Positions 33,156 through 62,757 of a DNA stretch of 64,000 nucleotides are shown here, piece by piece. Both the position numbers and the translations under genes were made by a program. Source of the DNA: Bacteroidia bacterium. Its GTDB lineage: Bacteria; Bacteroidota; Bacteroidia; NS11-12g; UBA9320. Positions within the stretch are counted from its first letter, which is position 1; each line of letters starts with the position of its first letter. The stretch is from the NCBI GenBank assembly GCA_017640445.1, contig JAEPQQ010000001.1, forward strand, positions 56,769 to 120,768. Direction: 5' to 3'. The notes under the pieces are model-generated. The model saw nothing but the letters and a program-made list of their open reading frames with translations, was not told where the DNA came from and searched no databases.

Positions 33156-33164
33156 TTTTGGATT

Positions 33165-36157: not shown

Positions 36158-36208
36158 ACTTCGGGCCATGCGTATACTGCATCTCATACTTTTGACCCTG
36201 GGCCTGTC

Positions 36209-37119: not shown

Positions 37120-37125
37120 CGAACC

Positions 37126-37866: not shown

Positions 37867-37950
37867 CCTACCTTTCACAGGAAGTGTTTGGACAATCGTT
37901 CTGTCCGCAGTAACTTCGGAGACATAGCAAAACACGAACGTTAAACAAAT

Positions 37951-38406: not shown

Positions 38407-38412
38407 GATCAA

Positions 38413-38826: not shown

Positions 38827-38834
38827 TATAGAAG

Positions 38835-39680: not shown

Positions 39681-39723
39681 CCTTGCGGAGAATCATACGT
39701 AATTCTACTTTTGAAATCAAGTT

Positions 39724-40272: not shown

Positions 40273-40292
40273 ATTAACAGGGTAACACGATT

Positions 40293-40733
40293 ATGGATCA
40301 AACAACCAGATGGAAGGGATTTTACGCCTATCATGATGTACAGGATAATGGTATCGAGCACATCACACGAATACCTTTTACCATGAACATTGAGTTTGAC
40401 AATGGGAAAATTACGGGTACAACATGGGATGTGGAGAGCGATGGACTTTTCGATGATCCCATAACGATAAAAGGTTTCATGGTTGATGACCGCACCAGCT
40501 TTATGGTTACCTATCCGTGTTTGTGGTACTGGGATGAAGAGCAGAATGGTTTTGTTAAGGACGAAGAGAATAAAGACTATGAGGTCCATTATTCAGGGGA
40601 ATATAACAACCATAGTAAGTGCTACCAGGGTGATTGGACAATTACGCTGGAAGAGGAACGAGAAGGCAAGTGGCAAACGGATTACAACGAGAAATTTTTA
40701 GAAGGAACCTGGGAAATGGAACGAGTCGAATGA
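40293..40733 (+). CDS. Hypothetical protein
   Basis: A 146-aa ORF. Confidence 0.45.
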   Translation: MDQTTRWKGFYAYHDVQDNGIEHITRIPFTMNIEFDNGKITGTTWDVESDGLFDDPITIKGFMVDDRTSFMVTYPCLWYWDEEQNGFVKDEENKDYEVHYSGEYNNHSKCYQGDWTITLEEEREGKWQTDYNEKFLEGTWEMERVE

Positions 40734-41389
40734 AACCGCTGGCCTGTTTACTGTTGAGCTTTTTGGTTCTGATTAGTGGTGAACCCTACGAAGACGTTCG
40801 GGGTGTATCGATTCGAACTCAATGGGTTGACAGTTTGCCGGGAGTTTTTGGATTTAGCCAGTTATGGAGTTATCCCGAAGGGGTTTATCGACGAAACGAC
40901 GGCCAATTGAGTTGTGACGGCCTTTGTCCGGAAGGCATAGACCAGATGAAGGACTCCTCAGGAAAGGTGATTAGTGACTCTCTGGAGAAGTTCTACGCCT
41001 TGGTAGACACCTCGCACCAGTATCATAGTTTTTTGTCGGAAGCTCGAATGTATGAGTGGGCCGGTTCCAACTTCATCAGTGCAGTACAATTGAAAGATGG
41101 AAGCGTTCAGTTAACGTCTCATGGGAATGCTGCCACGCATTGTCATTTGATTATTCGATTGGGAGAGGATTCGACAAGGGCCTCTGTGTATTATGTCAGT
41201 ATCCGACCTGTTCCGGCAGAAACCTTTCCTTTGAAGACGGGCATGATTCTATTAGATCAAAATGCGTTCAGGCAAGGTTGGATCAAAGCGACATTTCAAT
41301 TCGAATTTGAGAACACATTAGAGCCTGACCACGAACTTTGGTGGAAAGGCAAGGTGTATACTCGTTTACAACCTGATGGAGAGGGGTGA
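40730..41389 (+). CDS. Hypothetical secreted protein
   Basis: Met at 40730 in an ATGA overlap with the upstream stop. Signal MKPLACLLLSFLVLISG. Confidence 0.5.
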   Translation: MKPLACLLLSFLVLISGEPYEDVRGVSIRTQWVDSLPGVFGFSQLWSYPEGVYRRNDGQLSCDGLCPEGIDQMKDSSGKVISDSLEKFYALVDTSHQYHSFLSEARMYEWAGSNFISAVQLKDGSVQLTSHGNAATHCHLIIRLGEDSTRASVYYVSIRPVPAETFPLKTGMILLDQNAFRQGWIKATFQFEFENTLEPDHELWWKGKVYTRLQPDGEG

Positions 41390-41428
41390 GAAAACCTGCC
41401 ATTTGTGAAAGGCATGGTATATCCATCA

Positions 41429-43897
41429 TCAAAGTCGATATTTTAACAACAAACGGCCGCTGTAAACGTGTTTGCGTTCAACACCATAAAGGCCTTCAAT
41501 CATGCCTAACCCAAAACTTGTTTGAATGGACAACTTCTGCAGAGGGTGGAACGAAGCTGTTGTAACCCAGTTATACCTTAAATCATGAGAATCATAATAG
41601 TCGAAGAAGATGGAGGATGAAACGTTGACTTTCTTTTCTGATTGCTGGCCAACCTCAATTCGAACACCCCTATAGTTCAGCGTGTCAATTTGTGGTTTAG
41701 ACTGATTTCTGTAAGCGTTTACGGAAGCCCGTAACCCAGGGCTCTTCAGTGCCAGTAACAGGTTGTAGAATTCGTTCTCGACAGGTGCTTCTCCTTGATT
41801 GAAGTCAATTTGGCTTCTCGTGTAGTTGGAGACAACGGATACCCTTGTCTTTTTGACCTTTTTGACATAGATGATACCGGCTGTGGTAACACTCAACTGG
41901 TTGTTTACACGGAATACGGAGTCTGGATGGTTGTTACCTTGCTCATAGGGTGCGTGCTGAACAAACAGGTTAGGCCACTTTTTCAGATTCGTTCTAGCAG
42001 AGATGCCATACCCTTTCATTGTGTTGGTTGTTTGTTGAATGCTTGTGATGTTGTCGGCAAAATGCTTGTAGAAAACAGAAGTCTGTAGTCTGCGTTTTAA
42101 GAATTTTCGATCCAATTGAATCCGATGTTCATCGTAACCATTGCGCATGAATGGGTTGGATAGGTTTATAAAACCAGGGTAGATACGGTGATTGGTTATA
42201 GACATCTTGGATTGAGCATCAATTTGAACCTTGAATTCCAACTTTAAGGCCATTCGATTAAGACGTTGTACGATAACCCCCGGGTGTTTAGTTTCGGATG
42301 AGGGTTCTGGGAGCTTTCGGTTGTCGACATACGCCGAATGCGCCGTGGTAGCCCTGATGTTAAGGTGTTTGCCAAGTTTTCGTCTCACCTCAAGCGTTTG
42401 AACAAAGTTTCGTTTAGGCTCAGTGAGAGTCACAGGATCCCAGATGGATGTGTTAGAAATCGTTAGACTTCCGCGTGACGACATACGTTCATAATACACG
42501 CCCTGAACATTTCTGGTAAATTCTGGATTGGGTTGACCTAATCCAAAGGTGTTAATCCGGTTGTTGAATGTCCTGCCACCAACAAGTTTGAAGTGGTTTT
42601 TACCTTTGGTGAATCCGGCATTCAGACCTTTGACCGGTGTTCCGTTTAACGACAGCTTTGAAAAGAAAGGGTAGTTAATTCCAACCTCAAAGTAATCGAC
42701 ATTGCTCAGGATACCGGCTAACTTCTTACTACCTAGTTTCTGAGCCGCTCTCTGTTTGATAAAATCCGGATTTGCAAACTGTGATTGTAGGTATTCAATA
42801 CGACTTCCGTAGGCAGAGTCCAGATCATTGACCAATCTGTAAACCGAGTCAACCAGTTCATATTTTCTTTTGAGATCTTCATATTGTTCCTTTCGTTTTA
42901 GGTAGGTTTCATATTTGGTTGAGTCGAGTTTCGCTGCCCGTTCCGTGGTGATATGGTTGTAGGGGTTCAGGAGGGAGTCGGACGTTCTTTTTATCGCGTT
43001 TTCTATCAGGTTAATTTGTCGATCCTTACCCTTCTTAATCTGGTCCGCTTTTCCATTTGGATTCAACTCATCCTGAGCATTAGGTACATCCAGGTGCCGG
43101 TTTAGATTCTTTTTGGCTTGAATATCGATTTGATCCAGTTGGCTCTTTTTATGATCCAATTGCAGTTTTATTTGGTTTTTATAGCTTCCAAGTTCAGATT
43201 GCTTTTCTCGTGCTATGTTCTTTTTCTGATAGACTTTCTGGAGCTCATCTCTGGCTTTTTGTTGTAGATTACTCTTAAAGGTCTCGGTATCGAATCGAAC
43301 ACGAAAGGAGTTCGAATTATAAATGGTGTTGTCTTCCGTCGTTACAAAGAAGTCAACAGCAAATGGCAGATTCGCGACTTGAATAGTCGGATTGCCATAA
43401 AATCGGCTATAGGCCTTTTCACTTATGGTAAAGGGATCCTGGTAGTTGGTGACGAACGACTCGGAGACAATTTCTCCAGAGAGGGAGATCCTGGACGAAA
43501 CGATTTGTTTTGTTCTGTCCAGCGATAACCTGAAAAGTCCGTTAAGCGAGTCTCCATGGTTTTTTAGGGAAGATTTTTTAGGCAAGATTTCGTTCAGAGA
43601 AGCACGAAGAAGGGAGTCGCGAAAATCGTTAATCTGGTTTTTTGCAGAGTTTAAACCTGCGTTTGTTCGGTGCCGCAGGGAGTCCTTGTGTCTGTTTACG
43701 GCATACGCTATACTGTCACTCTTTTTAGAAAGAAGTTCATGGGACTTACCGTATTGGTCAATCAGTTGTTCTTTCTGAAGTTCGATATTTTTCAGGGTTT
43801 GTTCCTGGAGACTGTCTTTGTTTACAACCTTGGTATTGATTTGGGCAAACCCAGTAGAAAACAAAAACAGGCAAACCAGGACAATCGCCAGACGCAT
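41429..43897 (-). CDS. Predicted outer-membrane beta-barrel protein with a long N-terminal coiled-coil region. It is the last gene of the toxin operon.
   Basis: The signal MRLAIVLVCLFLFSTGFAQ begins at Met 38 of the listed ORF. About 400 aa of K/E/Q/L-rich heptad-like sequence follows. The C-terminal ~420 aa show an amphipathic beta-strand alternation ending ...RLLLKYRL. The gene lies 116 bp downstream of the RHS gene stop on the same strand. Confidence 0.6.
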   Translation of the reverse strand: MRLAIVLVCLFLFSTGFAQINTKVVNKDSLQEQTLKNIELQKEQLIDQYGKSHELLSKKSDSIAYAVNRHKDSLRHRTNAGLNSAKNQINDFRDSLLRASLNEILPKKSSLKNHGDSLNGLFRLSLDRTKQIVSSRISLSGEIVSESFVTNYQDPFTISEKAYSRFYGNPTIQVANLPFAVDFFVTTEDNTIYNSNSFRVRFDTETFKSNLQQKARDELQKVYQKKNIAREKQSELGSYKNQIKLQLDHKKSQLDQIDIQAKKNLNRHLDVPNAQDELNPNGKADQIKKGKDRQINLIENAIKRTSDSLLNPYNHITTERAAKLDSTKYETYLKRKEQYEDLKRKYELVDSVYRLVNDLDSAYGSRIEYLQSQFANPDFIKQRAAQKLGSKKLAGILSNVDYFEVGINYPFFSKLSLNGTPVKGLNAGFTKGKNHFKLVGGRTFNNRINTFGLGQPNPEFTRNVQGVYYERMSSRGSLTISNTSIWDPVTLTEPKRNFVQTLEVRRKLGKHLNIRATTAHSAYVDNRKLPEPSSETKHPGVIVQRLNRMALKLEFKVQIDAQSKMSITNHRIYPGFINLSNPFMRNGYDEHRIQLDRKFLKRRLQTSVFYKHFADNITSIQQTTNTMKGYGISARTNLKKWPNLFVQHAPYEQGNNHPDSVFRVNNQLSVTTAGIIYVKKVKKTRVSVVSNYTRSQIDFNQGEAPVENEFYNLLLALKSPGLRASVNAYRNQSKPQIDTLNYRGVRIEVGQQSEKKVNVSSSIFFDYYDSHDLRYNWVTTASFHPLQKLSIQTSFGLGMIEGLYGVERKHVYSGRLLLKYRL

Positions 43898-44013
43898 AAT
43901 GGGTACGGTGGTCTTATAAAGCCATTCGGAAAACCTTTTGGAATATCCTATTAGATAGGGGAGATGTTTCGGAGTAAAAGCCGAAACATCTCCCAATAAA
44001 TCAGTCATATGGC

Positions 44014-44772
44014 TTATTTCTTAGGGACTGGTATTGAGTTTATAACATTGGTGTGATATTGACTTGTGGTTTCGATTTTTTGCAACATTCTTGCTTTACC
44101 AGTTCCATCAGACTGAAGGTCGAAACCATAGGTAAGTGACAGGATAGGCACATAAGAATCTCCTACTTGTCTCACTAGAGATAACTCAGCGACCCAATAA
44201 ACAGGACCATCTTGGTGCTTTGGCCTTCCAGGCTGGTCACTAAATGATCGATAGCCAATCTCCAGGTTGTCACCGTATACTGGCACCTTGTTCTTACGGT
44301 CATAACCCGAATAGAAATGTGGAGGGTCATTTGGTACCGGTGGATCTGTGTACTCAAGCTCCCTTAGAACCGGAGTGCCTCGATTATAGTTCAACAACTT
44401 GTACTCGTTATGTGGATAGTTGGTTTTGATGGTTTGGACCCAATTAACATAACCTACGTCGTCTGCAAGCTTGGTGTCTAGAACTATCCCGGTGAAATAT
44501 CCATTAATCGGACTTTTGTGACCATAAAAATCCAGACCCCTAGAAAAGGGCTCAAAGTGTATCACATTTACTTGACCAAGCTCACCCAGCGAATAAGTGG
44601 GTTTGGGATCGTTTAGATTCAGATACTCTCCAATTGGAAGGTTCTTTGCTTCATACTCCTTGTTCCAAGCCATTAAATCCTCAGTTGGTATACCAGTCCA
44701 GATCGATATTTTCGAGAACCAGTCGTTTTCTTCTATTTTCCATTTCCATACTCCATCCAGTAAAACCGAGTC
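44014..44772 (-). other. C-terminal variable (toxin-like) domain of the RHS protein, downstream of the DPSGA core terminus. It includes a LysM-like segment.
   Basis: The sequence after IIDPSGA is DSVLLDGVWKWKIEENDWFSKISIWTGIPTEDLMAWNK...NLPIGEYLNL (LysM-like spacing) followed by ~190 aa with no recognised family. Confidence 0.6.
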
Positions 44773-47700
44773 TGCACCCGAAGGGTCGATAATCCAGATA
44801 GGATTATTAGCGTAACATGAGTAACCGCTCTGGTCATGTTTGACAACTGGGTCGACATTCCACCTTCGGCCTAACCTACTATCGTATTGCCAGAATTGAG
44901 CGGTTAAACTGTTCCCCGAACCATGAATCTCATCATCAGCCTCTTGTCCCTGGAAACCATATTTATAAGTAGACGTAGCATAGCTCCCAGCTTCAAATCC
45001 CCGTTCGTCCATCAGGGAGCCAAACGCATAGTAGTCCTGTGCCTTAATCACATAAGGTATGAAGTAATCAATTGTTCCGTTAGAGGTATAATCAACGCCT
45101 TGCTTTCGGTCTTGAATGGTGACCAGTACATTGCCTAAGTGGTTTGACAATTCATAGGTCTTTAAACCCCGTTCCGTGTAATGAACAACGGTGTCAACTA
45201 CAAATAGTACATTGATTGGATAGGCCGAATAATCTCGAGATGTAAGACGAGAGTCGTCAAGTGTTGCCGTGAATTCTCGTTCTACTAACACCGTGTCAAT
45301 GTGCTGAACACCAATACGCGAGGACCCATAAATGGTGAACTCGTTGATCTTGAGCTGGTCGGTATAGTGACTACCGTTGGATGGATATGCACGCGTATAC
45401 GTAGCCAATACCTTGCCCTCACCATCGCGTATGTAATACTCAATTTGCCAGTGACTTTCATCGAGCAACGTATTGTTGTTGGAAGCATCCTTGGGCTTTA
45501 CAACCTTGTACATTCGGTTGTTGAATACATCATACCCAAACTCGAGATCTGGTTGCGCGTCGTTCGCACCTCGTTTGATTTCCTTGATCTTGCCAGAAGC
45601 CGTCCAAACAATTTCACTAATTGCAGAACTTTCATCGCGTGTTAGATTCCCTAAAACGTCATAACCATAGGTGTTATCTGTGTTGATTTGGGATGGAGTG
45701 CTTGTAAACGATGTACCTGGATCATCTACGTCATTGGTATACCTTGATGTAAGCAGGGGTTGATCATTAACGTGATACAACTTGTTGCTGTGCATGCCTT
45801 CCCAATTCAGGGTTACACTTCCTCCCGGCGAGCTGACTGTAGCCGATTTGCCACGCTTGTCATAATGGTAGATCAGGCTATCCATCTCCACAGAAGGTGT
45901 TAGATGCCCGTTTCTGCGTAACCGCGTAATGTTCCCATTTCCGTCGTATTGGAAATCTTCATAATATAAAGCCTCGCCCGTAGCACTCGTGTTTAACCAG
46001 GCATCCTGGGCCGAATTGATATTTTGAAACACGCGGTGTTTGAATATTCTATTCAGTTGATCGTAACGATATACGTTCCCCATAACATCGGCCTTCAGGC
46101 TTCCGTTTATGTAGTCATTTTCCATGGGAATCGAAGTGGTCATCATAGCAATGTTGCCATTGTATAAAGCATCATAAGCTGAGGCAACATCACTACCCGT
46201 TTTGTCTGGTCCGTAAGCACCACCGTTAATTGGCGTATAATCTTCGTTGAAATAAGAAAGGTCATACGCAAAGGCATCTCTTGCCACCCAACGATTTGGA
46301 TTGGTTGGAATTTGCATGCCGTCCTGGCCAATATCCTCGGTAGAATTGAGTACGGCGCCATTTACGCCTTTGACCCACCCTTGGAGCGTATATGCATAAT
46401 CCATTCCCTGTACATTGAGTTCCCCCAATTCCTGTCGTGCCAGCGGTCCATGGAAATAGTATTCATACCGCGATTCGCTCTCCCACGAATAATCATCTCG
46501 CGACGTTTGCACCTCAACCAGTTGATTGTTTCGATCATATACTAAACGATGTACAAACTGATCCGCTTGATTCTTTTGGTAAATGGTTTTAAGAACATTC
46601 CCACTTAAGAGGTCGAAGGTGTAATCGATGCTGAACAGGTTTCTCTCTAATGGTGCAAGTGTTGGTAAGTCTTGAACATAACGACTCAGGTTCCCCATCG
46701 CATCGTACGAGTAAAACACACCATGGTCGTACGTTGCATCATTGTTGTCGTTAACCTGTTCATAAGTCGAATAGGAAATCCAGTTGCGTAGGTTTTGTTG
46801 ACCACCAAGGTCTGCGAATGCATCATAAATCGGTTGGGAAGCATTGGCTTCGTCAAAATAACTTCGTAGAACTTCTGATTTGTAACTTGGGTTACCAGAA
46901 ACATCAAGCATATTGGTTACGGATGAGTTGGTGGCTGCGAACTCTGAAGTCATTCCTCCGGAGGGTGGGTTCTGAGGGTCAACGATTCCCGATTCAACCG
47001 TTCTTCCTAATTCGTCGTACACTGTGTAAGCGAATTTATTGTCTACAGCCTGGTCTTCGTTTTGACTTAGGATGGGGCGGCCAAGTTCATCGTACCACAT
47101 ATTGCTTTCGCCACCATCCGGTGTTTCTTGAGATACAATTTTCCCAAGACTGTTGTATCTATATTGAGTAGCCAGGTCGTGATAAGTAAGAGGTCGTGTA
47201 GCAAGGTTACCGGAACGGTAAGCTGCCGTTTTCGCAATGCGATCATTTGCCAAGAGCAATCGATCTATGTTACTCAGGCTGGCGTTGTCTACATCAACTC
47301 CCGCAGGAGGCACAGTTTTTACCAACGAACCGCTTCGGTCGTAGTAGTATAACATATGGTGAAGTGTTCGGTCGTTGTAACGAACACGCATTGTTTCCTT
47401 GAGAGAGTCGCTGTTCATGCATACGTTGACATACATACTGTCGAATAACTCGATACGCCTTTTGAGATAGTCGTCATACCGTGTAAGGGCGTTGGTCATG
47501 GCAACTTCGATGTCCTCTTCAAAACAAGGCTCAGGATCTACGATTGGCCGAAAAAAGGGTTTGTTGCATAGACGAGCACAGTTGAGACATGGAACTTCAA
47601 CACCAATATCAATAGTCTGGAAACGTCCCGTTAAACCAATTGTGTCATAGCAGTAGTCTTCAGAGCCGATGGTTACATTAGGACAATTAGCTTTGCTGCC

Positions 47701-50700
47701 CCAATATTTTTTAGGCATGCGATAGACTGCAATGAGTTTAAACATGTCAGGTGGTCGACACCCATGTACCTCCAGTGGTTTTACGTCAAGAAACTCAACG
47801 ATTTCGCCAAAGTTCCACTTTTTAGCGGCTGAGGGAAAGGTAAGATTGAAGGCCATTTCGTATCCATTTTGATCTTCAATGGTCACTACCAGTTCTGGAA
47901 CTTTGACCTCCTTCAGAACGTATTCCAGGTGATTTGAGAATCCATTGTCGTACAAGGTTGGGTTGTTGTAGAAAGAGTTGATGTCAAACGCACCTATTCC
48001 GGTGAAATTCCAATCTGTCGCATACAGATAATTCGGTTGGTCTTTTCGGGTTATTTGATCCAAGAAGGCCCTGAAAGCATCAAGGTACTCCATATCTACC
48101 GTATAGCATTTTGGGCAGGGCTTGGGCTTTGGGTCGAGTGTAACACCCGACGAACATGGACCGGTAAACTGAATAAAAGACTCTAGCGATTTCTTGCTCT
48201 GCGTAGTTCCGTTGTAACATTTGTTGAATCTCGCGTTGAAGAAATCTTCCAAGAGTGCAAACCAGTCTAGCATGTCTTGCACCGCCTGGGTAATAGTTCC
48301 GTTATAGGGGTGATATTGATAGTAGAGTTCACCAAGGTCGCCGGCTAATTGGCGAAGATTAGGCTGCGCGTATCCCGGATCGTCTGGTCGAGGGTTATTA
48401 ACCAGAAAGTCCTTGAAGGCCTGACCAATTGTTTCGCATGGTAGTTTTTCAACACAGGGGTCTTTTTTATGACAGCCACGAAGCTTGTTTAGATAGAAAG
48501 ATAAGCTATAACCAGCATTTGGATTGCATTTCGAGAATTCCAAATTCAACAGGCGTTCTATTTCTTCAAGTAGTGCAAGCCTTGCATCATTGATGGTTCC
48601 AGATCCGGTTTTGGACGCATCCATTATATCATATATGTCACCCATTTGATCAAGTGGGGCCAGATACAAGACCCCTGGTAAATGAGAGCTTATGTTGCCG
48701 AGGTTCTGACCATTTACGATCAGGTCGATGTTATAGGCTTCTCGAACGGCCTTCATGAAGTGAAAAGTGAGTCGGTCACAGGGAATGTTATCAACGCAAG
48801 GTTCTTTTGGATTGCACAGCAAGCTTTTATTCAAAAGCCAGTCCATGTCCTCAGCGTATTCTTCTAAATTGCTGCCGCTTATGTTGTTCCAGTTGGACGT
48901 GCTTGTCCACCCGTTTACGGTATTGCCGCTATTGTCCTTACGTTCACCGGTTCCCCACATCTTTTCACAGGCTTCTAAAAGGGATTGTATGTTGTCAATA
49001 GCAAAGCCTTTCTCGCGAAGCGCAAATGCTTCAAGGGTAATGGGAGGGGTCTGGGGTGGAGTTCCGGCAAGGTAGGAATCATAATCTTCCCTAATTTTCT
49101 TTAATTCTTTACAACCGCAGGTGTCCAGGAAACCGGTTTCCGTTTCAAACTCAATCTCGGGGTCACAGGTGGATTCATCTAAGCGCGTCAGGTCGGCAGG
49201 TGGGTTAACGTCCAATTGTTGCTGAATGTGTAGATTAGATTCGGGTGGGAACTTCATTCCTGGCAGATAGTCGTCAGGTTCGCATGGTGTCGGGTCGTTG
49301 ACAGGGATTCCTTTCCATAACTTACAACAGATTTGCCGCATGTTGTTGAAATTCCAGCTTGAGGGCCAACTCGTATTAAATAGAGAATCGTACAAATCTT
49401 CAGCTGGCAGGCCTCCTGAATGGCCAGAATCAAGGAGGTGCCCGATCTTCATAATGCGTTCGCATTGGCACTTAATCGATTCGACGTCCTGGGATTGGCT
49501 GACCTCGGATGTTTGCTCGCCTGGAATCACAAACCTTTCGTTGGTGGTTGCCCACTCAGTAGTAACTTTCTTACGAGCAAAACCGGCCTTTATGAACGGA
49601 CTTAAACTAGGCACTTTAAGAACAGGAGTTTCAGCAGCATAACGTATTTTCTCTGGCTTGCCCCCGTTGAGGTAGATGTCATCATTTTTCAGGTCAAAGG
49701 GATATGATTCGTCAAAATACGAAACCAATAATTTTCGGGATAGAGTATTCCAGAGTTGTCCGACCGTCGAATCATAACCTGGGTCAATGCAATTTCGGGC
49801 AAAGACTTCATACTCATAATATGTGAGGTTGAATCCAAACGACCGATTCACCCAGGTGGTGAGCATGTCTTGATACAACGGGTCTCCCGCAGCGAGTTTA
49901 ATTGCGGCAGAATCGTAACGCTCGTAGAATTGGTAAACGGGATCGTTTAAGTCCTTACAAACAATACAGTTTTGACACTTCTCTGCTGGGAATACGTGTC
50001 TTTGACTGGCCTTTGCCATTGCGAGGTCATGAGGGTAAGAACATCCACAAGAGTCTAGTATTGAATGAACTACCAGGTCAGGGCAGGCGTGTGGAGAACT
50101 CCATTTTATGGTATCACAAATACAATCATTTGCATCAGGGTCGTCGGTTGCTAAGTAGTCGTGTCCATAAACACCTGGAAATTGAATGAGCAGGTCATCA
50201 CAAATTCCTTCTTCAAACCAGTCATTCCCCAGATGCTTTTTAAATACATCATGTAGGTTGCCGAATGGGTAGGTAGTGGTATTTGTCGAGTTTTTTAGGG
50301 AGCGGGTAATAGAGCCATATGGGTTGTCAATATCACAGCCACTCATGCATAGATTCTGTAAATCCGCCTTGAAAGCATTGAAGTCGCCTTCGGTGAGGTT
50401 CGAAATCTTTGAGCAATCGCTCAACCATTCTATCCACATGTTCACGTTGTCTTCACAATTGCGTTCACAAGAACTCGTGATTTGATCGTTAATGAGATTT
50501 TCATAATCCTCGGCATTACATAAATTCATTATGCTTCCCCAACCTTGTTCAATATCATCAAGTGAAGAAATATCTTGAGCACCAGGCCATCGCGGTACGC
50601 CTAAAAGGCTCTGAGGAATTTCGAGGTCGCAGATGGAGGTTTGGTCACATGAATTGGTATAGTAGTCTTTCAGCCATGCACGTTTTTGGGATAGGTACAT

Positions 50701-54009: not shown

Positions 54010-54027
54010 TTCAATACGTGTTTGGGG

Positions 54028-54708
54028 TTAAAGTTTGTATAGCTCAATTTGGTCTAATTCAGGTTCGTCCTGAAGCTCCAGCGTCTTGAGATTAATTACG
54101 TTAGCTGGATCTATGAGTACCGGTATTAGTCGTTCGTCTGTGTTGCGCTGAACCATCCGCATTACGGTGCGATGGATTTCCGACTGCCCAAGTGCATTTT
54201 TGCGCACCTGGGTCAAAACCGTCTCTTCCAATTCATCGGTGCTTCTCCGAAACTTGATCGTAAGGGTCACATCATCCAGGTAGTAGGTGTTGATTCGAAA
54301 AGGCCCTTCATTTTTCGACCTTATTATTTGGATGGAATCAGCGTTACTAAACCCAGCCAATTGATGAATCACGCTGTCCGGGATTTGATTTTTGCGTTTG
54401 ATCCGAATTTTGGCTCGGCGAACCGGTAATGGGGTTCTTCTTACCAGAGTTGCGATCTTCGACTCCGCATACACCGTTAGTACGTTGCTCGCCCATGTGT
54501 ACTGCCTGTAGGCATCCCCAAATTCCGTGTATGTTATGCCTTTACAGCTACCTTCTTCCATTTGCAGTGAGTCCGTTAAATCGAGGTTTACGTAGTTGTA
54601 TTGCCGCCAGGTTTTAAGGTAGCAAGCAGGTTTGTTGGGTTTTTCTTGTCCAAAACCTGGGATGTATAAGAATACTAAGAACAGAGATATAGAAACTAGT
54701 TTTTTCAT
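54028..54708 (-). CDS. Small secreted protein (226 aa) sandwiched between the two giant genes
   Basis: Signal MKKLVSISLFLVFLYIPGFGQ. It lies 5 bp after the SpvB-like gene stop and 18 bp before the RHS gene start. Confidence 0.6.
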   Translation of the reverse strand: MKKLVSISLFLVFLYIPGFGQEKPNKPACYLKTWRQYNYVNLDLTDSLQMEEGSCKGITYTEFGDAYRQYTWASNVLTVYAESKIATLVRRTPLPVRRAKIRIKRKNQIPDSVIHQLAGFSNADSIQIIRSKNEGPFRINTYYLDDVTLTIKFRRSTDELEETVLTQVRKNALGQSEIHRTVMRMVQRNTDERLIPVLIDPANVINLKTLELQDEPELDQIELYKL

Positions 54709-54713
54709 GGTTA

Positions 54714-57700
54714 TTAATCTTTAAAGCTTTGGTAATTTTCACTGAGTGTCATGATGCCACGGTCTGTTTCCACCTTATTGCGTTGGAGACGTCCGGCTTC
54801 ATTGTATTCGTAGAATGTGGCAAAATTATTTGGTCCGAGACTGGCCATAAGTCGTTTACGGTCTTTGTCGTACACGTAAGCATTCATAATGGCATCTTCA
54901 GGGAAAATCATGATATCATCCACAAAACAGGGAAGGGCCGGCTCGCCTGTCCGTCTGTTTACCATAAACCGCATTCGCTCGATTTCTTCTCCTGCCAGGA
55001 GCGTAAAGCGATAGGTCATTTTTCTCCATTCATTGACGAAAACATCCGGTGTTTCAGTGGTTAACCCAACCGGTGTAGAAGTGCCCCCTACATCTTTGGT
55101 CAGGTGGAACTCGAATTGGCCTTCAAATCCTTCTTTTACCCAAAGTGAAACAATGTATTCCTGGTCTGTATCTGGTTTGAGGTAGAAGTTGGTTGCGAAG
55201 TGGCTTTTGGTAAGCACATTTGAAGGCGTACCAGGAGAAGGAGCGCCTTCGTCAGACGCATCGTTGTCTAGCTCAACGTCAGTCCAGCCATCACCTAACA
55301 TAAGGGCCTTATTGCCTGTGTGGGCCTGTTGTTCGCTTATGCGATTTACACCACCGATTAGGGCCTCACCTACACGCCAGTGTCTAAATGATTCACAGAA
55401 CTCTTCCTGCCAGTCAGGTGTAACAACCGTATTAAGGCCTAAGTAGTCCTGACAATTCAGTTCCACATAAGCGTCACCAGAATAGTCCTCAAAACTCTCA
55501 AAAAGTACTTCGTTGTAGGCGGCGTTGGATACAGCAGCGACTGGTAACGAACGTTGGTAATCATATAGGATAGAATTGCGTATACCATTGAGGGCACTAA
55601 CGGTTTCCAGATCGTTGCCAAGAAAGTCAGTTTTAGTTACGGAGTCTTTCCAGGTCCAGGGGTTTGTCAAACTTTGAGTTGAGTTCTTTTGCCAGGTAGA
55701 TGTAGATGAATTGTAGGTCCAGTAGGGTTTGAAATCTGATAAGTAACCCGATTCACGAATGTTTGTCGAATTGGGGTCGGTAGATACATCTTGCACCTGA
55801 ACCCGGGTAGAATGAGCGTTCCGCTTTTCATAATACACCACTTCGGATGCGGGTCGCCAATTACCCTTTAACCCGTATACATATGGGTTAATAATATCTC
55901 CCGGATGGAAAGCCGACCACATGGAACACAACGCACAGTTTGGAAGTGGATGCATGGGATTCTCATCGTCTCTTCCACAATCACAGGGCGCAGGTTTGCC
56001 ATAAAAAATCCCGTTACCCGCACCAGAATCCAAACTGTCATAGTGAAAGCCAAAGTCTTGAGTGTAAGAACTCGGAGTGTTGCGATAGCCATAACCATAA
56101 GCTGTTAGGTCACCACTAACCTGCGGAACTGCTGGTAGTGTACACATAGGCTCCGCACAGTATCTGAACTTATAAAGCATTTTGCGTTCGTCATGATAGT
56201 CGATTGTTTTCGCCGAAATAACTTTATCCCAATTTGCGAACTCATGCCACTTCCCGGTTGAGTGGTCTAGGGGGTTGTCCTTGAGTACAATGGTTTCCGC
56301 ACCATATGTCAACAGGTTTTTATGTCCTGAACGGAATACGCGAAGCCGATTAGTAGGTGTGGTGTTATTCCCAAGTTGATCAATTAGTTCAACGGTTCCG
56401 TTATGGGATGATAGCACCCAGTATTTTGTGGTGTTAGCGAAATCGTCGGGCACCAGAATGTCTCCTGGCAGTAAACTACCTGAAGGATCAGTTAGTGAAC
56501 TTCCATTCCACTGAAGCTCCACCGTTAAGCCAAGGTTCTCGTATGCTCCGGCAAGCTGACCGTTCATCCAGTAAGCTGGTTTGTTCAGGGTGTACACGTT
56601 GTCGTTAAATTCGTCCTTGGTCTTTGTCACCATCACTTTACCGGTTACTGCATCCCATGCCATGTTTTTGATAAAGGTGTGATTGCCCTTGTCCATGGTG
56701 TGAATCGAATCCAATATGCCATTTCGGAATACTTGTTTGGTTACAATCATGATCCGGGAATCGTTGGAGTGATATGCATAACTCCCAAATACAGAAGGTA
56801 TTATTGGGATTGGCATAGGGTTAGCAATGTCTACATTGGGTGTAATGGCACCATCCTGATTAATTTCAGTAGTTCGGAACGCAAAAACCGTGGGCACCAT
56901 TTGAACCCCCATTTCTACATCTTCAAAACTTCCATCTTTGCGTAAAACGGTAACGGTGTTGACCAATGCATTTTTAGAGTCCATTTTGTAGTGAAAAGTC
57001 TTCGATGTAATTGCATTTTTACCATTGGGCTTAAACGTTTTTACGGATTTGGGTTTGCCATGCATATCGTTTTGCTCAATCATAAAACCCTGTGAAGCGG
57101 CCGCAAACCCCAACTTGGCTTGTACGTCAAACCCAAACGTAAACTTCTTGCTATCACTTTCGGCTGGTTCTTTTGCAACTCCATCTGTTGAAGGTTCTTT
57201 GGACTTAAAGGTGTCTTTGAGTTGTGGAGAAGTGAAGTTCCGGATGCGCTTGTCGATAGTGGTCATTGAAGATTTGGTAGGAAAGTCATAGGCCGTATAG
57301 AATTCGTATTCGGTTCGGCCGGTTTGGTGCCTCACAATGTCTTGGTGTGGGGCTACATGTTGAACCGTAACCTTACTGTAGCCTACCTGGGCAGCTGGAT
57401 AAAACTCTTCTCCAATAGGTCCTAAATCGTAACCAATCGAAACAGAACCCAATGGCCCACTTCTTTTTCGCCGATATACGTCTTTTAGTGCCTCGTACTG
57501 AATCGGACGAACAAGTGGATTTTCCTCTCCTCCAATAAATGGTTCGTATATGGCAACACCTGAGGTAGATGTACTATCACTTCCTTTGTTGTAGGTGTAC
57601 AGCGTGGTGTAAGAAGCTTCCGATTCGGTACTATCCGACATGTGGTGCCAGCCGTCATAAGTGGTGACTGTTTTTACGCGATGGCCACCACCATATTTTT

Positions 57701-60700
57701 TTCTTTGTGGATGAAGAAGTCGAATAAACGATCGATCAATATCAATACGTTGAGCATGACTACGAGCCTGATAGTAATTAACCGAGCCCATAATCGACTT
57801 AATATACTCAGGTATTATGCCTACCGCCTGATTCACTGCATCATCGATTTTTTCTGATGTATTACTACGCTTGGTGTATCCTTTTGGATTCATGACATGA
57901 GGCACATTGCTCAACGCATATTGCAATGCCATTTTAGTTACAGGATTGACCTTAGTCGGCTGCAACCGTCCAAGTTCATATGGGGCCACCTTAATATAGG
58001 CTTTGTTTGTACTGGCAATATCACCGTGTTCTACTACAGAGAAGAAGCCGGAAACCTGCTCATTAGCCAGGCGTTCTCCGGTGCGCGCCAGGTTGACGTT
58101 GAAACTGAAAAAAACAAGACTGTCGTTAGTGATGTAATCGACGGAGGTGGTTCCGGGATCTTTTTCAAAGGTGATGTACAGGTTTGGGTCCTGTATGCCG
58201 TCGTATAATTCGTTGTCATCATAATCCGAAAGCGATCCTCTGATCCCACTAATGGGTCTCATTACCATGGCGGGTTCGTTTTGTACATACGCATAGTCAT
58301 CGGATTCGTAGGTCCAAGTAATTTTCCCGCCGGAGGGTAAGGTTACATCTGACATCATCCAGGCCGAGGCCCAGGTGTCAATATTGTTTGGGTCTTGGTG
58401 GGTATAAGGAAAGTGAGCCAAGGTCGTTTGACGGTCGTCGGAAACTCCACTTTTTTTGTACAGATCGAGTGGATGGTATGTACCCCACCGGTCACCACTG
58501 AGGTACGCATAATCTGGGTTAGCCGTATTGTACTCAAATAGGTAGGGGTCGGATGTAGCCATACCAAACGAATGGTCAATAAACTGAAGCGTATGCAGGG
58601 TAAGTTTACCACCGGAAAACTTAACATTTGAGCCATATCCGGCCACAAGATCCTTAAGAGGATGCTCGTTACAAGAGCTAGAAACGCTAGGTGCCTGGTA
58701 AGTTTTTACACCTTGGCAGAGGTCATAGGAGTACCCCAGTTTAATCTCTCGGGTTGGGCTGGCAGAAAGTCCGTCCTTTTCAAATGACGCACGGTCGAAA
58801 ATTTTGATGCCAACCAGGCATTTTTGGCGATTCCCAGAGGTATTGATGCCGCCATTGCGCCCGACATTGCCATAACCATCTGCGCGATCTTCAAGTTCGA
58901 AGACAACAATCTCGTTTTTGGTTTCAATGCTGTGCATATACCACTGTTCCCGTTGCCCGTATGAAAAACTTGCTTGATCATCGAGTTCGTCTGATTCGTA
59001 ACCTCTGGCCCAGTTTGCGTCTGTAAAAGGAGTTCTCCAGTTGAATAGGGAGTGGTACATGTCTGAGCTAGACGAGTTGTAATCCGGCATGCCATAGTTG
59101 AATTTGACATAATTCCCCAAGTCATCTTTTGTTGGGCCGTCGCCAGTTAAGTCTGAATAATCTTGAGATAAGATAGTGGTCAATAGGAAAGTACTGGCGT
59201 ATGAAGGCGTTTTAACCTCTTCAAAGAAGTTGTTGATACCCTTTTTGTTTGACTCACTGTCGTCTGCATTGCCCGATTTGGTATAGCTTGTGGTCTTGCT
59301 TAGGTAATCATCAAGGTCCTGGCCTGAGCCACTGCCGTCTACGGCAAACCGCACATTGTATTCGTTAACCTGATACACCGGCAAGCCAAAGTTGTATAAC
59401 ATACCGTCTGGTTGGAGTACGTTGATTTCGGAGATGTGGTGCCCCTTACGATAGTCAGAAGCGCGGTCTATTTCGTCATAATTAAGTGATGTTGACCCGG
59501 AACTGGTTGTGGAAACCCTATATGAGGTTTGACAAGCAGCTCCGGTTGATTCAAATTGATAGCTTCGTAGTTTGGCAGTGATGCCTTGTTTACTCGCCTC
59601 ATCGGCGGTAAGATAGGAAATGGCTTGCAGCCGAGCGCCACGCGACGATTTAGCCGCCTGTGCACTAAGTGTACCCATATCGTTTCCCTGAACGCCAACC
59701 ATGTCGTTGGTTATACGCCATGCCGATAATTTATCACGGGTATTGCTTTTGAGTCCAAACTTGATAGCCTGTTTGCCGCCAAGTTGGTTGTCATAGGCCA
59801 TATCTGTTTCCACAAACTCGAAGTCGTTACGCAGGGCAAAGGGCTCGTATGTACTATTGACACTCCTGTCTTTGAATTTTAAGTAGGGAGCTGCCTCGTT
59901 TTTGCCTTCCCAACGCTCTGTTTTTTTGATGACGTGTCGGAGCCCGAATTTTCCGGCAATTTCCCAGTTGGTGCCACCGCCTATTTCAACTTGTATTTTC
60001 GGATTGGTAAAGGTGGTAACCTTTCCGAGAGAAGGGGTAAGGATACCTATACTGTTTTGCTTAATCTTGAAACTGCCGCCAACCCCGTTTGCAGATACAT
60101 TAAATACGTCATAGGTTGCAACAGTTGGTGGTAGTTTTTGCGTTGTTTTGTCAATGACCATTGAGGCAACTTGATGGTCAAGGAGTGCTCCTTCAGCCTC
60201 GGTGCCTTCCTGAAAATAGAGGCTGCCATAGGCCTTGGAAGCCTTGAATTTTTTTGAGTACTTCTCAGTGGATACAACAACTTTTCCGGAGATGGCCCGA
60301 TCATCGGCAAATATTTTATCCCCTGATATGGCGAGACCGAAGACCTTGACCGATGCATGAATGTCAGGGTTAAACTGCGGGAGGTAAGAAGATGAAAGGA
60401 AGTTGGCCCCGAAATTGGCCACATCTGTTGCTCCATAGCGAAATCTGGGTTTCTTTAACGCCATGGACTTTAGCCCTTTTTCCGTACTGAATTTGATTGA
60501 AGGACTCGAAAGCAAGATGTGGTATCGTTTTTCTTTTCCTCCTAACCATCTATTGTCCAAAAAACCTATGCGCGGCACTACCTCATAGGAGTTGCCGTCA
60601 AACGCACTGTAAGACGTCTTAAAGTCAAGAATTGGTATTTTTTGGGTAATTGAGGAGTCTCGCAGAACTATGGCAATAATGGAGTCGGAAAGAGTTGAAT

Positions 60701-61292
60701 CTCGAATGACTTCACCCGTGAGGGTCTGAATGGTTTTGTTAGCAGATAATCCAAAGCTCAGGTCGTAATTGATGCCAAAGCCACGGTAGTTGTCATGGAT
60801 TATGGTGGGCAATCCATTCATCTTTATTCCACCGTTTAATCCGACTAACTCTACTTGTTTACCTTCCTTGTTGTGTGCTTGAAAGTCATACGCCTGTATA
60901 ATCCGGGGTTTCTTGTTGATTTTTTTCTCTACTTCGTCACCTTTAAAATCGTCGGGTATTCCACGCATGGCTCTTCCAATGGATCCTGCCTGAAGACTCC
61001 ATCCTAGACCTACCCATCCGGCGTTTTGCTCCGAGTTGATATCGCCCGAGTAGGTCAGATTAATTGGATAACCTCCAATGTCAAAGAGTGGAATAGAGTA
61101 TTGCATGTTACCAGTGAATTGATCCACTAGTTGACCAGGCCCAATCTTTTGAAATCGACTGTATTCCGGAGGTGTAGGCCCTCCTGTTGTGGCCATGGCA
61201 GTCGATATAAGGTCAACAGGGTTGAACATGAGGCCAACGGCCAGGATGCATAAAACTTTTGTGAGTCTGGATTTACGGATACGTATAAGCAT
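54714..61292 (-). CDS. Giant (2192 aa) protein with an N-terminal SpvB/TcB-like domain and C-terminal YD-like repeats
   Basis: The N-terminus PTPPEYSRFQKIGPGQLVDQFTGNMQYSIPLFDIGGYPINLTYSG...GWVGLGWSLQAGSIGRAMRGIP matches the SpvB (Salmonella virulence plasmid 65 kDa B / TcB N-terminal) domain pattern. The C-terminus is AYVYDKDRKRL...FYEYNEAGRL. Nearby is a Cys cluster APCDCGRDDENPMHPLPNCALC. Confidence 0.8.
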   Translation of the reverse strand: MLIRIRKSRLTKVLCILAVGLMFNPVDLISTAMATTGGPTPPEYSRFQKIGPGQLVDQFTGNMQYSIPLFDIGGYPINLTYSGDINSEQNAGWVGLGWSLQAGSIGRAMRGIPDDFKGDEVEKKINKKPRIIQAYDFQAHNKEGKQVELVGLNGGIKMNGLPTIIHDNYRGFGINYDLSFGLSANKTIQTLTGEVIRDSTLSDSIIAIVLRDSSITQKIPILDFKTSYSAFDGNSYEVVPRIGFLDNRWLGGKEKRYHILLSSPSIKFSTEKGLKSMALKKPRFRYGATDVANFGANFLSSSYLPQFNPDIHASVKVFGLAISGDKIFADDRAISGKVVVSTEKYSKKFKASKAYGSLYFQEGTEAEGALLDHQVASMVIDKTTQKLPPTVATYDVFNVSANGVGGSFKIKQNSIGILTPSLGKVTTFTNPKIQVEIGGGTNWEIAGKFGLRHVIKKTERWEGKNEAAPYLKFKDRSVNSTYEPFALRNDFEFVETDMAYDNQLGGKQAIKFGLKSNTRDKLSAWRITNDMVGVQGNDMGTLSAQAAKSSRGARLQAISYLTADEASKQGITAKLRSYQFESTGAACQTSYRVSTTSSGSTSLNYDEIDRASDYRKGHHISEINVLQPDGMLYNFGLPVYQVNEYNVRFAVDGSGSGQDLDDYLSKTTSYTKSGNADDSESNKKGINNFFEEVKTPSYASTFLLTTILSQDYSDLTGDGPTKDDLGNYVKFNYGMPDYNSSSSDMYHSLFNWRTPFTDANWARGYESDELDDQASFSYGQREQWYMHSIETKNEIVVFELEDRADGYGNVGRNGGINTSGNRQKCLVGIKIFDRASFEKDGLSASPTREIKLGYSYDLCQGVKTYQAPSVSSSCNEHPLKDLVAGYGSNVKFSGGKLTLHTLQFIDHSFGMATSDPYLFEYNTANPDYAYLSGDRWGTYHPLDLYKKSGVSDDRQTTLAHFPYTHQDPNNIDTWASAWMMSDVTLPSGGKITWTYESDDYAYVQNEPAMVMRPISGIRGSLSDYDDNELYDGIQDPNLYITFEKDPGTTSVDYITNDSLVFFSFNVNLARTGERLANEQVSGFFSVVEHGDIASTNKAYIKVAPYELGRLQPTKVNPVTKMALQYALSNVPHVMNPKGYTKRSNTSEKIDDAVNQAVGIIPEYIKSIMGSVNYYQARSHAQRIDIDRSFIRLLHPQRKKYGGGHRVKTVTTYDGWHHMSDSTESEASYTTLYTYNKGSDSTSTSGVAIYEPFIGGEENPLVRPIQYEALKDVYRRKRSGPLGSVSIGYDLGPIGEEFYPAAQVGYSKVTVQHVAPHQDIVRHQTGRTEYEFYTAYDFPTKSSMTTIDKRIRNFTSPQLKDTFKSKEPSTDGVAKEPAESDSKKFTFGFDVQAKLGFAAASQGFMIEQNDMHGKPKSVKTFKPNGKNAITSKTFHYKMDSKNALVNTVTVLRKDGSFEDVEMGVQMVPTVFAFRTTEINQDGAITPNVDIANPMPIPIIPSVFGSYAYHSNDSRIMIVTKQVFRNGILDSIHTMDKGNHTFIKNMAWDAVTGKVMVTKTKDEFNDNVYTLNKPAYWMNGQLAGAYENLGLTVELQWNGSSLTDPSGSLLPGDILVPDDFANTTKYWVLSSHNGTVELIDQLGNNTTPTNRLRVFRSGHKNLLTYGAETIVLKDNPLDHSTGKWHEFANWDKVISAKTIDYHDERKMLYKFRYCAEPMCTLPAVPQVSGDLTAYGYGYRNTPSSYTQDFGFHYDSLDSGAGNGIFYGKPAPCDCGRDDENPMHPLPNCALCSMWSAFHPGDIINPYVYGLKGNWRPASEVVYYEKRNAHSTRVQVQDVSTDPNSTNIRESGYLSDFKPYWTYNSSTSTWQKNSTQSLTNPWTWKDSVTKTDFLGNDLETVSALNGIRNSILYDYQRSLPVAAVSNAAYNEVLFESFEDYSGDAYVELNCQDYLGLNTVVTPDWQEEFCESFRHWRVGEALIGGVNRISEQQAHTGNKALMLGDGWTDVELDNDASDEGAPSPGTPSNVLTKSHFATNFYLKPDTDQEYIVSLWVKEGFEGQFEFHLTKDVGGTSTPVGLTTETPDVFVNEWRKMTYRFTLLAGEEIERMRFMVNRRTGEPALPCFVDDIMIFPEDAIMNAYVYDKDRKRLMASLGPNNFATFYEYNEAGRLQRNKVETDRGIMTLSENYQSFKD

Positions 61293-61330
61293 TTTGGTAT
61301 TCTTTTGGTGTTTAAGTGATTAAGGTTGGT

Positions 61331-62494
61331 TTAATGATTGCGAGGTTGGTCGGTTTGGTCTTCAAACCGGATACGAACAAAAAACGGATCAGATTTGCCA
61401 TTAGTGATCTCAAATACATAGGTAATGTCTGTCTCCAGATCTTGAATGTCTTCAGGTTTCAAGGCGAGGTTGGTTTTTCCTTCGGTCTTGTTTGTTTCGA
61501 TCAACTGACCTATTTCAAACCACTCGTTTGATGTTTCCGAGCGGATACGCGCAGACCAGTCCATTTGTTCATCTGAGTGATACCGGTCCTCAAACACAAA
61601 ACCGAGTTTCCGGTTTACTGGATGACCGTAGGCTTCCATTCCGAGTTTGGGTTTGACAACGTAGAAATACTCTATGGGTTTGGGTTGGTCAATCTCGAAC
61701 TCCCATACGTCGCTGGTGCCAATGTGAACATCACCGATGTAAGCAGATACCTGCCAGGCATAGCGCTGACCTCGACGTAAGTCATTTAATTGGCCAGGGA
61801 ACATCTGAGAAATAGTGGTGAGGTTCGTGCGTTCGTAAACAGCGCGGTTTCTTCGAATTGCATCTTCTGCCGTTTGTCCTTCGAGCATGTTGACCAAGCG
61901 GAATGTATAACGGAGGTTGGAGCTATTTCCGAAGGGCATTGGAGGAATCCAGTTGAAGTTGGGTCGAAGGTCCTCGACCACGGATTCGTCTTCAGGGGTG
62001 TTCAGAAGCAAGGGTGTTATGGTTTCCGAATGTGCTTGACCGCAAGCAGTGTAATTTTGTTCAATCTGAAACGCCCGTTTACAGGCTTCTTCAGTGTCCA
62101 TGCATGTTAGCCGAATACAATAAGTGTATTCCCCGGGTGGAAGGAATGAAGTACTCTTTTCGATAGCCGACAAGTTATGGTTTAGGTACCTGCTCTGAGA
62201 AATGCCAAAGGAGGTTGGATTGTAGCTATTTACACCTGGCTCGATGGAATGGGTCCTACTTTGAAATTGCACCACCAGGCCACTTGATTCATGGCTGAGT
62301 TCGGCTTCGTATCTGACAGTAACGGAATGGGAGCCAGCAAGTATTATGTCAAAGTTTAGAATGTCTTTGCTGGCCAACTGAAAACCGTTGATGGGGTGCG
62401 GATTGATGACTACCTGGCTTTTAACTATCGTGGTACTGGATAAGAAGAAACACAGGAATGCAATACAAGTTAGATTGAGATTGGGTCTGTTCAT
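61331..62494 (-). CDS. Hypothetical secreted protein. It is the first gene of the toxin operon. Translation starts at an internal Met of the listed ORF.
   Basis: Signal MNRPNLNLTCIAFLCFFLSSTTIVKSQ at Met 20. Its stop lies 38 bp upstream of the SpvB-like gene. Confidence 0.5.
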   Translation of the reverse strand: MNRPNLNLTCIAFLCFFLSSTTIVKSQVVINPHPINGFQLASKDILNFDIILAGSHSVTVRYEAELSHESSGLVVQFQSRTHSIEPGVNSYNPTSFGISQSRYLNHNLSAIEKSTSFLPPGEYTYCIRLTCMDTEEACKRAFQIEQNYTACGQAHSETITPLLLNTPEDESVVEDLRPNFNWIPPMPFGNSSNLRYTFRLVNMLEGQTAEDAIRRNRAVYERTNLTTISQMFPGQLNDLRRGQRYAWQVSAYIGDVHIGTSDVWEFEIDQPKPIEYFYVVKPKLGMEAYGHPVNRKLGFVFEDRYHSDEQMDWSARIRSETSNEWFEIGQLIETNKTEGKTNLALKPEDIQDLETDITYVFEITNGKSDPFFVRIRFEDQTDQPRNH

Positions 62495-62757
62495 GCTTAT
62501 TTTTTTAGAAATGAAAAAACAGTAAAGTCTATTATGGTAAGTTGGAAACATGTAACCAAATCACCCCATTTATTTGATAAGATCGAAGGGCCGTTTTGAA
62601 TCTGGTAGAGTTGACTTTGATTCTGGTGTAACAGCAAATTGTGACTAGTTAGAGGCAGCTGTATTATTGTATTTCGCATTATTTATATTTGTGTAAGGGT
62701 GCTTCTGGTAAATCCAGAATGCCCGACTTACACAAACCCGCCCTTAAAAACCTGAAA

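Follow-up and report, generated by a model that had tools for sequence, protein, structure and literature searches.

RHS-caged toxins are known to leave the cell on the spikes of type VI secretion systems (T6SS), in toxin complexes (Tc) after cell lysis, or at Gram-positive walls. In Tc loci such as those of TcdB2-TccC3 and YenB-YenC2, an SpvB-type YD-shell protein is encoded near an RHS-core protein with variable cargo; the Tc subunits are reported to be released by type 10 secretion system (T10SS)-dependent cell lysis (PMC10847048). The TcdB/TcaC export class is defined by a signal peptide, SpvB and an integrin-like propeller that are joined to the toxin (Zhang et al. 2012, PMC3482391), an architecture different from that of the cluster described here. 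Bacterial teneurin-like proteins (Raoelijaona et al. 2026, PMC13018210) and wall-associated RHS toxins such as WapA are toxins with a YD shell and a presumed exposure at the cell surface, and immunity genes follow them. The TANFOR toxins of Bacteroidota (Jana, Salomon & Bosis 2020, PMC7073777) are giant Sec-signal proteins with polymorphic C-terminal toxins and an unexplained outer-membrane route. Finally, in two-partner secretion (TPS) and contact-dependent inhibition (CDI) systems (TpsB-TpsA, CdiB-CdiA) the gene for a giant Sec-exported toxin lies beside the gene for its own outer-membrane barrel. The known exits of caged toxins leave unaccounted for how the many Bacteroidota RHS proteins with Sec signals cross the outer membrane. 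Here, we analyzed a stretch of 64,000 nucleotides from a Bacteroidia metagenome-assembled genome (GCA_017640445.1, contig JAEPQQ010000001.1 of about 130 kb, positions 56,769 to 120,768; NCBI locus tags JJ975_00540 and JJ975_00555). This whole stretch is referred to below as the window. It carries a five-gene operon on the minus strand, the best-supported reading of which is an RHS polymorphic-toxin system with an apparently undescribed trafficking module. As regards the cage, its closest counterparts are T6SS Rhs effectors and the BC cocoon of Tc toxins; as regards the presumed logic of export, it resembles two-partner secretion.

The operon consists of five consecutive minus-strand open reading frames (ORFs) at 41429-62551, designated g1 to g5 in the order of transcription:

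61331..62494, minus strand: g1, about 387 amino acids (aa) from the Met preceding a signal-like segment; maximal ORF to 62551, 406 aa
54714..61292, minus strand: g2, 2192 aa, predicted secreted giant
54028..54708, minus strand: g3, 226 aa, predicted secreted accessory protein
44014..54009, minus strand: g4, 3331 aa, putative RHS polymorphic toxin precursor
41429..43897, minus strand: g5, 822 aa from Met38; maximal ORF to 44008, 859 aa

The ORFs are real: frames of 2192 and 3331 codons do not come about by chance, and for each of the five products there are homologs elsewhere. An earlier note on this DNA, made from the letters alone, had read the same five-gene operon, with a full RHS shell, an RHS core and, at the C-terminus, a variable domain in the fourth protein, a coiled coil and a predicted beta-barrel of outer-membrane kind in the last one, no TcA gene in the window and no type IX secretion system (T9SS) C-terminal domain on the two giants. 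All five ORFs are present, with gaps of 5-116 bp (38, 5, 18 and then 5 bp from g1 to g5, the last being 116 bp with the 822-aa start of g5). The 387 aa that it gave for g1 correspond to a start at the Met before the signal-like segment, and the other readings just listed agree with the searches and the g5 structure model described below.

Sec-type signal-like N-termini can be read directly from all five proteins. The Gln at the predicted mature N-terminus of g1, g3 and g5 is in keeping with the 'Q-rule' that describes exported proteins of Bacteroidetes. Neither Por_Secre_tail nor TIGR04183/TIGR04131, which represent the T9SS C-terminal domain, has a Pfam or NCBIfam match in any of the five. 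Recognizable domains are found in g4 alone; for g1, g2, g3 and g5, nothing significant came from Pfam and NCBIfam, searched with whole proteins and with pieces, or from PDB sequences. Based on the features of the individual proteins and on their linkage in related genomes, we assign a probability of about 0.6 to the reading that the cluster makes an RHS-caged polymorphic toxin and exports it by a dedicated Sec-dependent outer-membrane route.

The cluster falls outside the Tc, T6SS-Rhs, T9SS-cargo, TANFOR and TPS families, since a defining feature of each was looked for and found lacking. A Tc locus was rejected as there is no TcA gene in the window or in related loci and the match of the SpvB model (PF03534) is sub-threshold. 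T6SS cargo was rejected given that neither g4 nor its neighbors have a Pfam or NCBIfam match to PAAR, VgrG, Eag or vgrG. T9SS cargo was set aside for want of a C-terminal sorting domain in the five proteins, TANFOR for want of a TIGR02542 NCBIfam match at E<=0.01, and TPS/CDI because no TPS domain and no Omp85/POTRA transporter were detected. Markers of TcA, T6SS, TPS and TANFOR are likewise missing from every neighborhood examined. Unlike the T6SS Rhs effectors (RhsA, Tse5, RhsP, S. bongori Rhs), g4 comes without PAAR, VgrG, Eag or T6SS genes; its N-terminus bears a Sec signal, and ~2100 additional residues lie ahead of the RHS region. T6SS effectors are not known to carry Sec signals, which counts against g4 as a T6SS cargo. 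From TPS/CDI the cluster differs in its cargo, an RHS cage instead of a beta-helix filament, and in the strands of the g5 barrel, which outnumber those of TpsB, a 16-stranded barrel. The study of TANFOR toxins (PMC7073777) reports neither an RHS cage nor a TcB-like partner nor a dedicated barrel for them, and g4 lacks a TANFOR domain. The study of teneurin-like proteins (PMC13018210) makes no mention of Bacteroidota, SpvB or an outer-membrane partner operon, and here there are two distinct proteins of the shell type, g2 and g4. A full-text literature search, the coverage of which is incomplete, returned no description of the cluster; the earlier view that this organization is not that of a described system is in line with this result.

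The cargo candidate of the cluster is g4. It matches RHS_repeat (PF05593) with E 5.3e-6 and 27.1 bits (gathering score 22), and Rhs_assc_core (TIGR03696) at residues 2993-3078 with E 2.2e-7 and 31.3 bits (cut-off 32.5). When a profile of the g4 RHS region, built from 18 relatives, was searched against PDB sequences, it matched SGS1 (2e-27), Tse5 (2e-14), RhsP (6e-14), RhsA (8e-11), a teneurin-like protein (E 4e-8) and the core region of YenC2 (E 1.4e-8). We then partitioned g4 according to tblastn coverage across relatives, cysteine positions and YD motifs:

51010..53712, minus strand: N-terminal module, residues ~100-1000, with high tblastn coverage across relatives
52708-52953, minus strand: DUF6443-like stretch, residues 353-434, sub-threshold match to PF20041
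47710..51009, minus strand: Cys-rich central insert, residues ~1000-2100, lineage-specific, aligned by the closest relatives alone
44776..47709, minus strand: RHS/YD shell, residues ~2100-2990, plus Rhs core, conserved in relatives and matched by PDB RHS proteins
44776-45033, minus strand: Rhs core, residues 2993-3078 (TIGR03696), ending in ...NNPIWIIDPSGA
44017..44775, minus strand: hypervariable C-terminal domain, residues 3079-3331, presumed toxin

The shell is ~950 aa long, and canonical YD motifs are confined to residues 2119-2783. The core motif, as read from the sequence, is '...YDSRLGRRWNVDP...NNPIWIIDPSGA', and the core terminus '...YANNPIWIIDPSGA' is followed by 253 residues. Alignments to every relative, including the 49%-identical homolog in locus L004, end at about residue 3080. 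A conserved module, an insert, a shell with a core and an unalignable tail together make up the anatomy of a polymorphic toxin. The sequence shows g4 to be a genuine RHS protein that carries an Rhs core and ends in a hypervariable tail. A candidate for a trafficking or docking module is the conserved N-terminal region of ~900 aa. Within this region, the DUF6443 match (E 0.0018, 18.9 bits) stays below the gathering score of 27.8; among the g4 counterparts a DUF6443 match is recorded in Niastella and a faint one is seen in L003, and the literature searched yielded no mention of this domain. The cysteines are concentrated in and around the insert, 63 out of 64 being located within residues 600-2200. 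Some g4 relatives have a nuclease tail, such as Tox-HNH-HHH or LysM with a NucA/NucB DNase. In 13 relatives (L009, L011, L023, L042, L055, L058-L061, L065, L071, L073 and L076) the g4 stop and the start of a same-strand ORF of 74-232 aa are no more than 10 bp apart, which is where an immunity gene is classically located; these small ORFs have no match to known immunity families. In L067 and L086, g4 is followed by g5, and no small ORF is present there.

To see how the genes are distributed, we searched for relatives in bacterial and archaeal species-representative genomes and compiled neighborhoods from the best 80 g2 loci, applying iterative searches to the ORFs of these loci; linkage counts are restricted to the loci with enough flank (62 or 66). 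At least 584 g2 relatives are present in the genomes searched. By record title, the best 80 belong to Bacteroidota, apart from L048 and L066, two metagenome bins that bear the titles Hydrocarboniphaga and Akkermansia. The cluster is apparently confined to this phylum. The carriers include Chitinophaga, Niastella, Terrimonas, Taibaiella, Flavobacterium, Fluviicola, Flavivirga, Pelagihabitans and Saprospiraceae. A g4-type gene is located 3' of g2 in 61/62 loci, and a member of the g3 family lies between the two in 46/62. On the 5' side of g2, g1 is found in 57/66 loci and g5 in 41/66, while two further loci have g5 after g4, as in the window. Relatives often carry additional genes between g1 and g2, namely an OmpH/Skp gene (PF03938, E 1e-13; 22 loci) and a gene for a lipoprotein-like protein of ~180 aa (34 loci). 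The commonest order is g5-g1-[OmpH]-[lipoprotein]-g2-g3-g4, from which the window differs. Of the five-gene synteny across Bacteroidota that the earlier note had proposed to check, the common travel of the gene set is borne out, and the order is different in most relatives. In some loci g5 is divergently transcribed and nevertheless linked, giving three arrangements in all. The persistence of this linkage despite changes in position and strand argues for a function shared with the cluster.

The g2 homolog is represented by two ORFs in 26/80 loci (L013, L019, L022, L032, L045, L046, L074 and others). These are either full-length tandem copies (about 1850-2200 and 1150-2500 aa) or an ORF of ~1850 aa followed by one of 300-900 aa. 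In two marine Flavobacteriaceae, L002 (Aquimarina, 16410-26348) and L034 (Pelagihabitans, 16481-25729), the gene after the g2 homolog codes for a giant protein with leucine-rich (LRR) and immunoglobulin-like (Ig) repeats, which the g4 search missed. These giants are at least 3082 aa long, the Aquimarina one having 4930 aa. The N-terminal part of the g2 partner is apparently exchangeable.

The second giant, g2, is far more cryptic. The earlier note had assigned its N-terminus to SpvB. At the sequence level this assignment goes too far: PF03534 matches residues 60-114 only, with E 0.25 and a score of 10.9 bits, well short of the gathering score (22). SpvB is nonetheless the most recurrent sub-threshold Pfam match in the g2 family (13/40 members, best E 0.0069). 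Neither the family profile (A1) nor the N-terminal profile (A6) reached any SpvB/TcB chain in the PDB at E<=10, phmmer found no relative among PDB sequences, and TcdB_toxin_midN/midC and the FG-GAP propeller have no Pfam match in g2 even at E<=10. At the fold level the assignment holds. An AlphaFold2 model of residues 1-1185 out of 2192, based on 55 sequences, has a pLDDT of 75.9 and a pTM of 0.74, and the three top Foldseek matches to it are TcdB2-TccC3, YenB and TcdB1-TccC2 (E 5e-7 to 7e-6). The TM-scores are very low because such big spirals are not superposable globally. The SpvB N-domain/TcB shell fold is present in this model, and we conclude that g2 is predicted to be a very distant SpvB/TcB-type YD-shell protein, with the relationship placed at the level of the fold. 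Two regions of g2 can be delineated:

60213..61130, minus strand: SpvB-N-domain-like region, ~residues 55-360, with the conserved motif GYP..L.Y....(E)AGWVGLGW.L..G.I.R..RG.PDD
54717..55655, minus strand: C-terminal ~310 residues, YD-repeat-like strands around a probable jelly-roll insert

The insert near the C-terminus was assigned from motifs, and the family consensus ends with '...YVYD....RLMA.LD.NNFATFYEYD.EG.LVR.K.ETERGIMT'. Alignment of the g2 C-terminus to the g4 RHS profile with hhalign gave a weak match (probability 25%, E 8e-4), and none of the seven g2 segments showed significant similarity to the RHS or N-terminal profiles of g4. This lack of similarity ruled out g2 as simply a diverged copy of g4. 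None of the 180 g2 homologs in the protein collection is functionally annotated and essentially none has a Pfam domain; most are nameless, and the others are called 'hypothetical protein' or take their names from accessory domains (PA14, thrombospondin type 3 repeat).

The best candidate for an export component is g5. Its model (822 aa, 64 sequences) has a pLDDT of 82.3 and consists, from the N-terminus, of helices, 4-6 strands, a helical hairpin of ~190 residues and 22 long beta-strands:

42704-43288, minus strand: helical hairpin of ~190 residues with a disordered tip, from the structure model
41435-42700, minus strand: 22 beta-strands, from the structure model

A signal peptide, a closed antiparallel barrel and a C-terminal aromatic beta-signal can all be discerned, and according to the model g5 is a large beta-barrel of the outer-membrane type that includes a helical hairpin. 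Its nearest structural likeness is to fimbrial ushers. Unlike ushers (FimD, PapC) and other large barrels (LptD, MtrB, TonB-dependent receptors), to which it has no sequence similarity, g5 lacks a plug, POTRA and usher N-/C-domains according to Pfam and has the additional hairpin of ~190 residues. The g5 family is large, with 921 representatives at E<=1e-3 in a 50%-clustered library, as counted in a full HMMER scan.

The hydrophobic signal-like N-terminus of g1, read from the sequence, ends in ...IVKS|Q. BLASTP of g1 to the Niastella neighbor gives E 3e-27, DUF928 matches weakly, and the family profile found no sequence relative in the PDB. Homologs of 1100-1680 aa (L015, L016, L038, L048, L071) are in some cases fused to SprB, CUB or Big_2, which points to a surface or adhesive role; g1 itself is probably an Ig-like or beta-sandwich surface protein. 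As for g3, hhalign to a family of 50 relatives (probability 93%, E 2.5e-7, 212 columns) identifies it as a divergent member of the ~240-280-aa family located between g2 and g4 in related loci. Nothing significant in the PDB was found with the profile of this family; the one lead is LolA (E 0.24).

If the cluster indeed exports a caged toxin, its parts could work as follows. Sec would carry all five proteins over the inner membrane, and in clusters that have the gene for it a Skp-like chaperone would hold the giants while they are periplasmic. At the outer membrane, insertion, anchoring or translocation of g2 and g4 would fall to the g5 barrel, with the N-terminal ~900 residues of g4 as the part recognized by the export machinery. 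The Rhs core would cut off the C-terminal toxin, which would remain within the RHS cage. The second giant may extend or cap this cage, as TcB does for TcC, or may form a surface conduit for toxin exit. A role of g1 in target binding is suggested by the adhesin-type domains of its larger relatives. The target would most likely be a neighboring cell, a view based on the nuclease tails followed by small immunity-like genes in some relatives. We regard as possible, though tentative, a more specific version of this scheme. In it, g5-g1-(Skp)-(lipoprotein)-g2-g3 would constitute an unrecognized Bacteroidota outer-membrane secretion or display pathway for RHS-caged toxins, the ~26-stranded barrel and TcB-like g2 would take the place of the TcA, T6SS or T9SS of other systems, and at the cell surface the g4 cage would dock on g2 or exit by way of it.

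Several observations weigh against export of a caged toxin by such a route. Export itself, surface location, autoproteolysis, toxicity, the g2-g4 contact and the contacts of g5 are all steps that we infer. The g4 tail (residues 3079-3331) has no Pfam or PDB relative and no recognizable toxin fold. In the window g5 follows g4 directly, with no small immunity-like ORF in between, and therefore an antibacterial role for the window copy is not supported. The window operon also has neither the OmpH nor the lipoprotein-like gene present in many relatives. The likeness between g5 and ushers is one that big barrels share in general, as TonB-dependent receptors, porins and LptD score nearly equally. 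Moreover, g5 was detected in 43/80 loci; its presence in about half of them may reflect fast divergence or limited flank.

The alternative that survives best, and which we nonetheless consider rather unlikely, differs from the proposed export of a two-giant assembly solely in the role given to g2. According to it, g4 is a self-contained cocoon, g2 is an independent YD-shell surface protein (an adhesin or a second cage) and g5 only anchors. The RHS part of g4 (~950 aa plus the core) is indeed near the length of the matched, self-closing T6SS Rhs chains (1077-1426 aa), g2 is duplicated or split in 26 of the 80 loci, and in Aquimarina and Pelagihabitans the g2 homologs precede the LRR/Ig giant and not a g4-type gene. 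However, g2 and g4-type genes are neighbors in all but one of the 62 loci with enough flank, and g2 ends in YD-like strands, as does TcB at its junction with TcC.

It is improbable that the giants are nontoxic, teneurin-like adhesion or recognition proteins with the variable tail as a recognition module. The intact Rhs core motif of g4 speaks against this, as do the HNH and DNase tails of relatives with their tightly coupled small ORFs. What such a role would explain is the presence of teneurin and teneurin-like proteins among the matches, the adhesion domains (CUB, SprB, Big_2) in g1 relatives, and a window g4 that has no immunity gene after it and no toxin signature in its tail.

A conventional Tc (ABC) system, with g2 and g4 as the B-C pair whose cocoon docks on a TcA encoded elsewhere in the genome, is very improbable. 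The g2 fold resembles TcB/SpvB, and g4 possesses the RHS shell and core of TcC. Orphan TcC loci, known in Yersinia entomophaga (PMC11067744), also count in its favor. The earlier note had allowed for a TcA gene on the same operon just beyond the window, and this is contradicted by opposite-strand genes that close the operon on both sides. Together with the lack of any ORF >431 aa elsewhere in the window, these flanks indicate that the operon is complete and that no TcA-sized gene accompanies it; no TcA-type Pfam family turned up in any neighborhood examined either. In g2 there is no sequence-level match to SpvB, the TcdB mid-domains or FG-GAP. Both giants are much larger than their Tc counterparts, ~2100 residues of g4 precede its RHS region, and g3 separates g2 from g4. 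All components have Sec-type N-termini, and the cluster brings its own outer-membrane barrel and often Skp. Finally, the hosts are Bacteroidota and some of the cargo domains are nucleases. Least probable of all is that g2 and g4 are cargo of T9SS or T6SS-iii with g5 as an unrelated neighbor: TANFOR toxins have been proposed as T9SS substrates without the classical C-terminal domain (PMC7073777), but Por_Secre_tail, TIGR04183, TANFOR, PAAR and VgrG have no match here, and the occurrence of g5 with g2 in 43 loci and three arrangements argues for functional linkage.

The cluster offers testable candidate parts for an outer-membrane route: a large barrel, a Skp-type chaperone, the g2 family and the ~900-residue N-terminal module of g4. 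It also adds a family of 2000-aa proteins that has no Pfam model and is TcB-like at the fold level. The SpvB/TcB shell type would exist far outside Tc toxins, past the reach of current domain models. Since the carriers include cultivable bacteria (Chitinophaga, Niastella, Terrimonas, Taibaiella, Flavobacterium), both genetics and cryo-EM are feasible.

The surroundings of the operon are as follows. On its 5' flank, 137 bp from the maximal g1 ORF, a plus-strand response-regulator gene (62689-63501) with receiver and LytTR DNA-binding domains is divergent from g1, and the LytTR regulator may control the operon. In L003, a receiver and GerE regulator occupies the matching position. A scan of the window for sigma-70 promoters and terminators gave background-level results, and no tRNA or Rfam elements were found in it. 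L004, which comes from a coral metagenome, is the closest fully sampled relative; there the cluster is immediately preceded on its upstream side by a pair of IS3-type transposase genes (HTH_Tnp_1, rve; 58-1394, minus strand).

On the 3' side, plus-strand genes converge on the operon over at least 10 kb. A long row of small same-strand genes occupies ~31800-41400 (plus strand). Their Pfam matches are a GNAT acetyltransferase, two Polyketide_cyc2, glyoxalase, DUF1648, cNMP-binding and GyrI-like domains, and several of them have no match. Farther away on the plus strand are a PAD_porph gene (23771-24889, E 1e-88), a member of the Porphyromonas-type peptidyl-arginine/agmatine deiminase family, and the gene for the glycine-cleavage T protein (2816-3919). 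Such housekeeping neighbors suggest that the operon resides in the chromosome and not in a mobile element.

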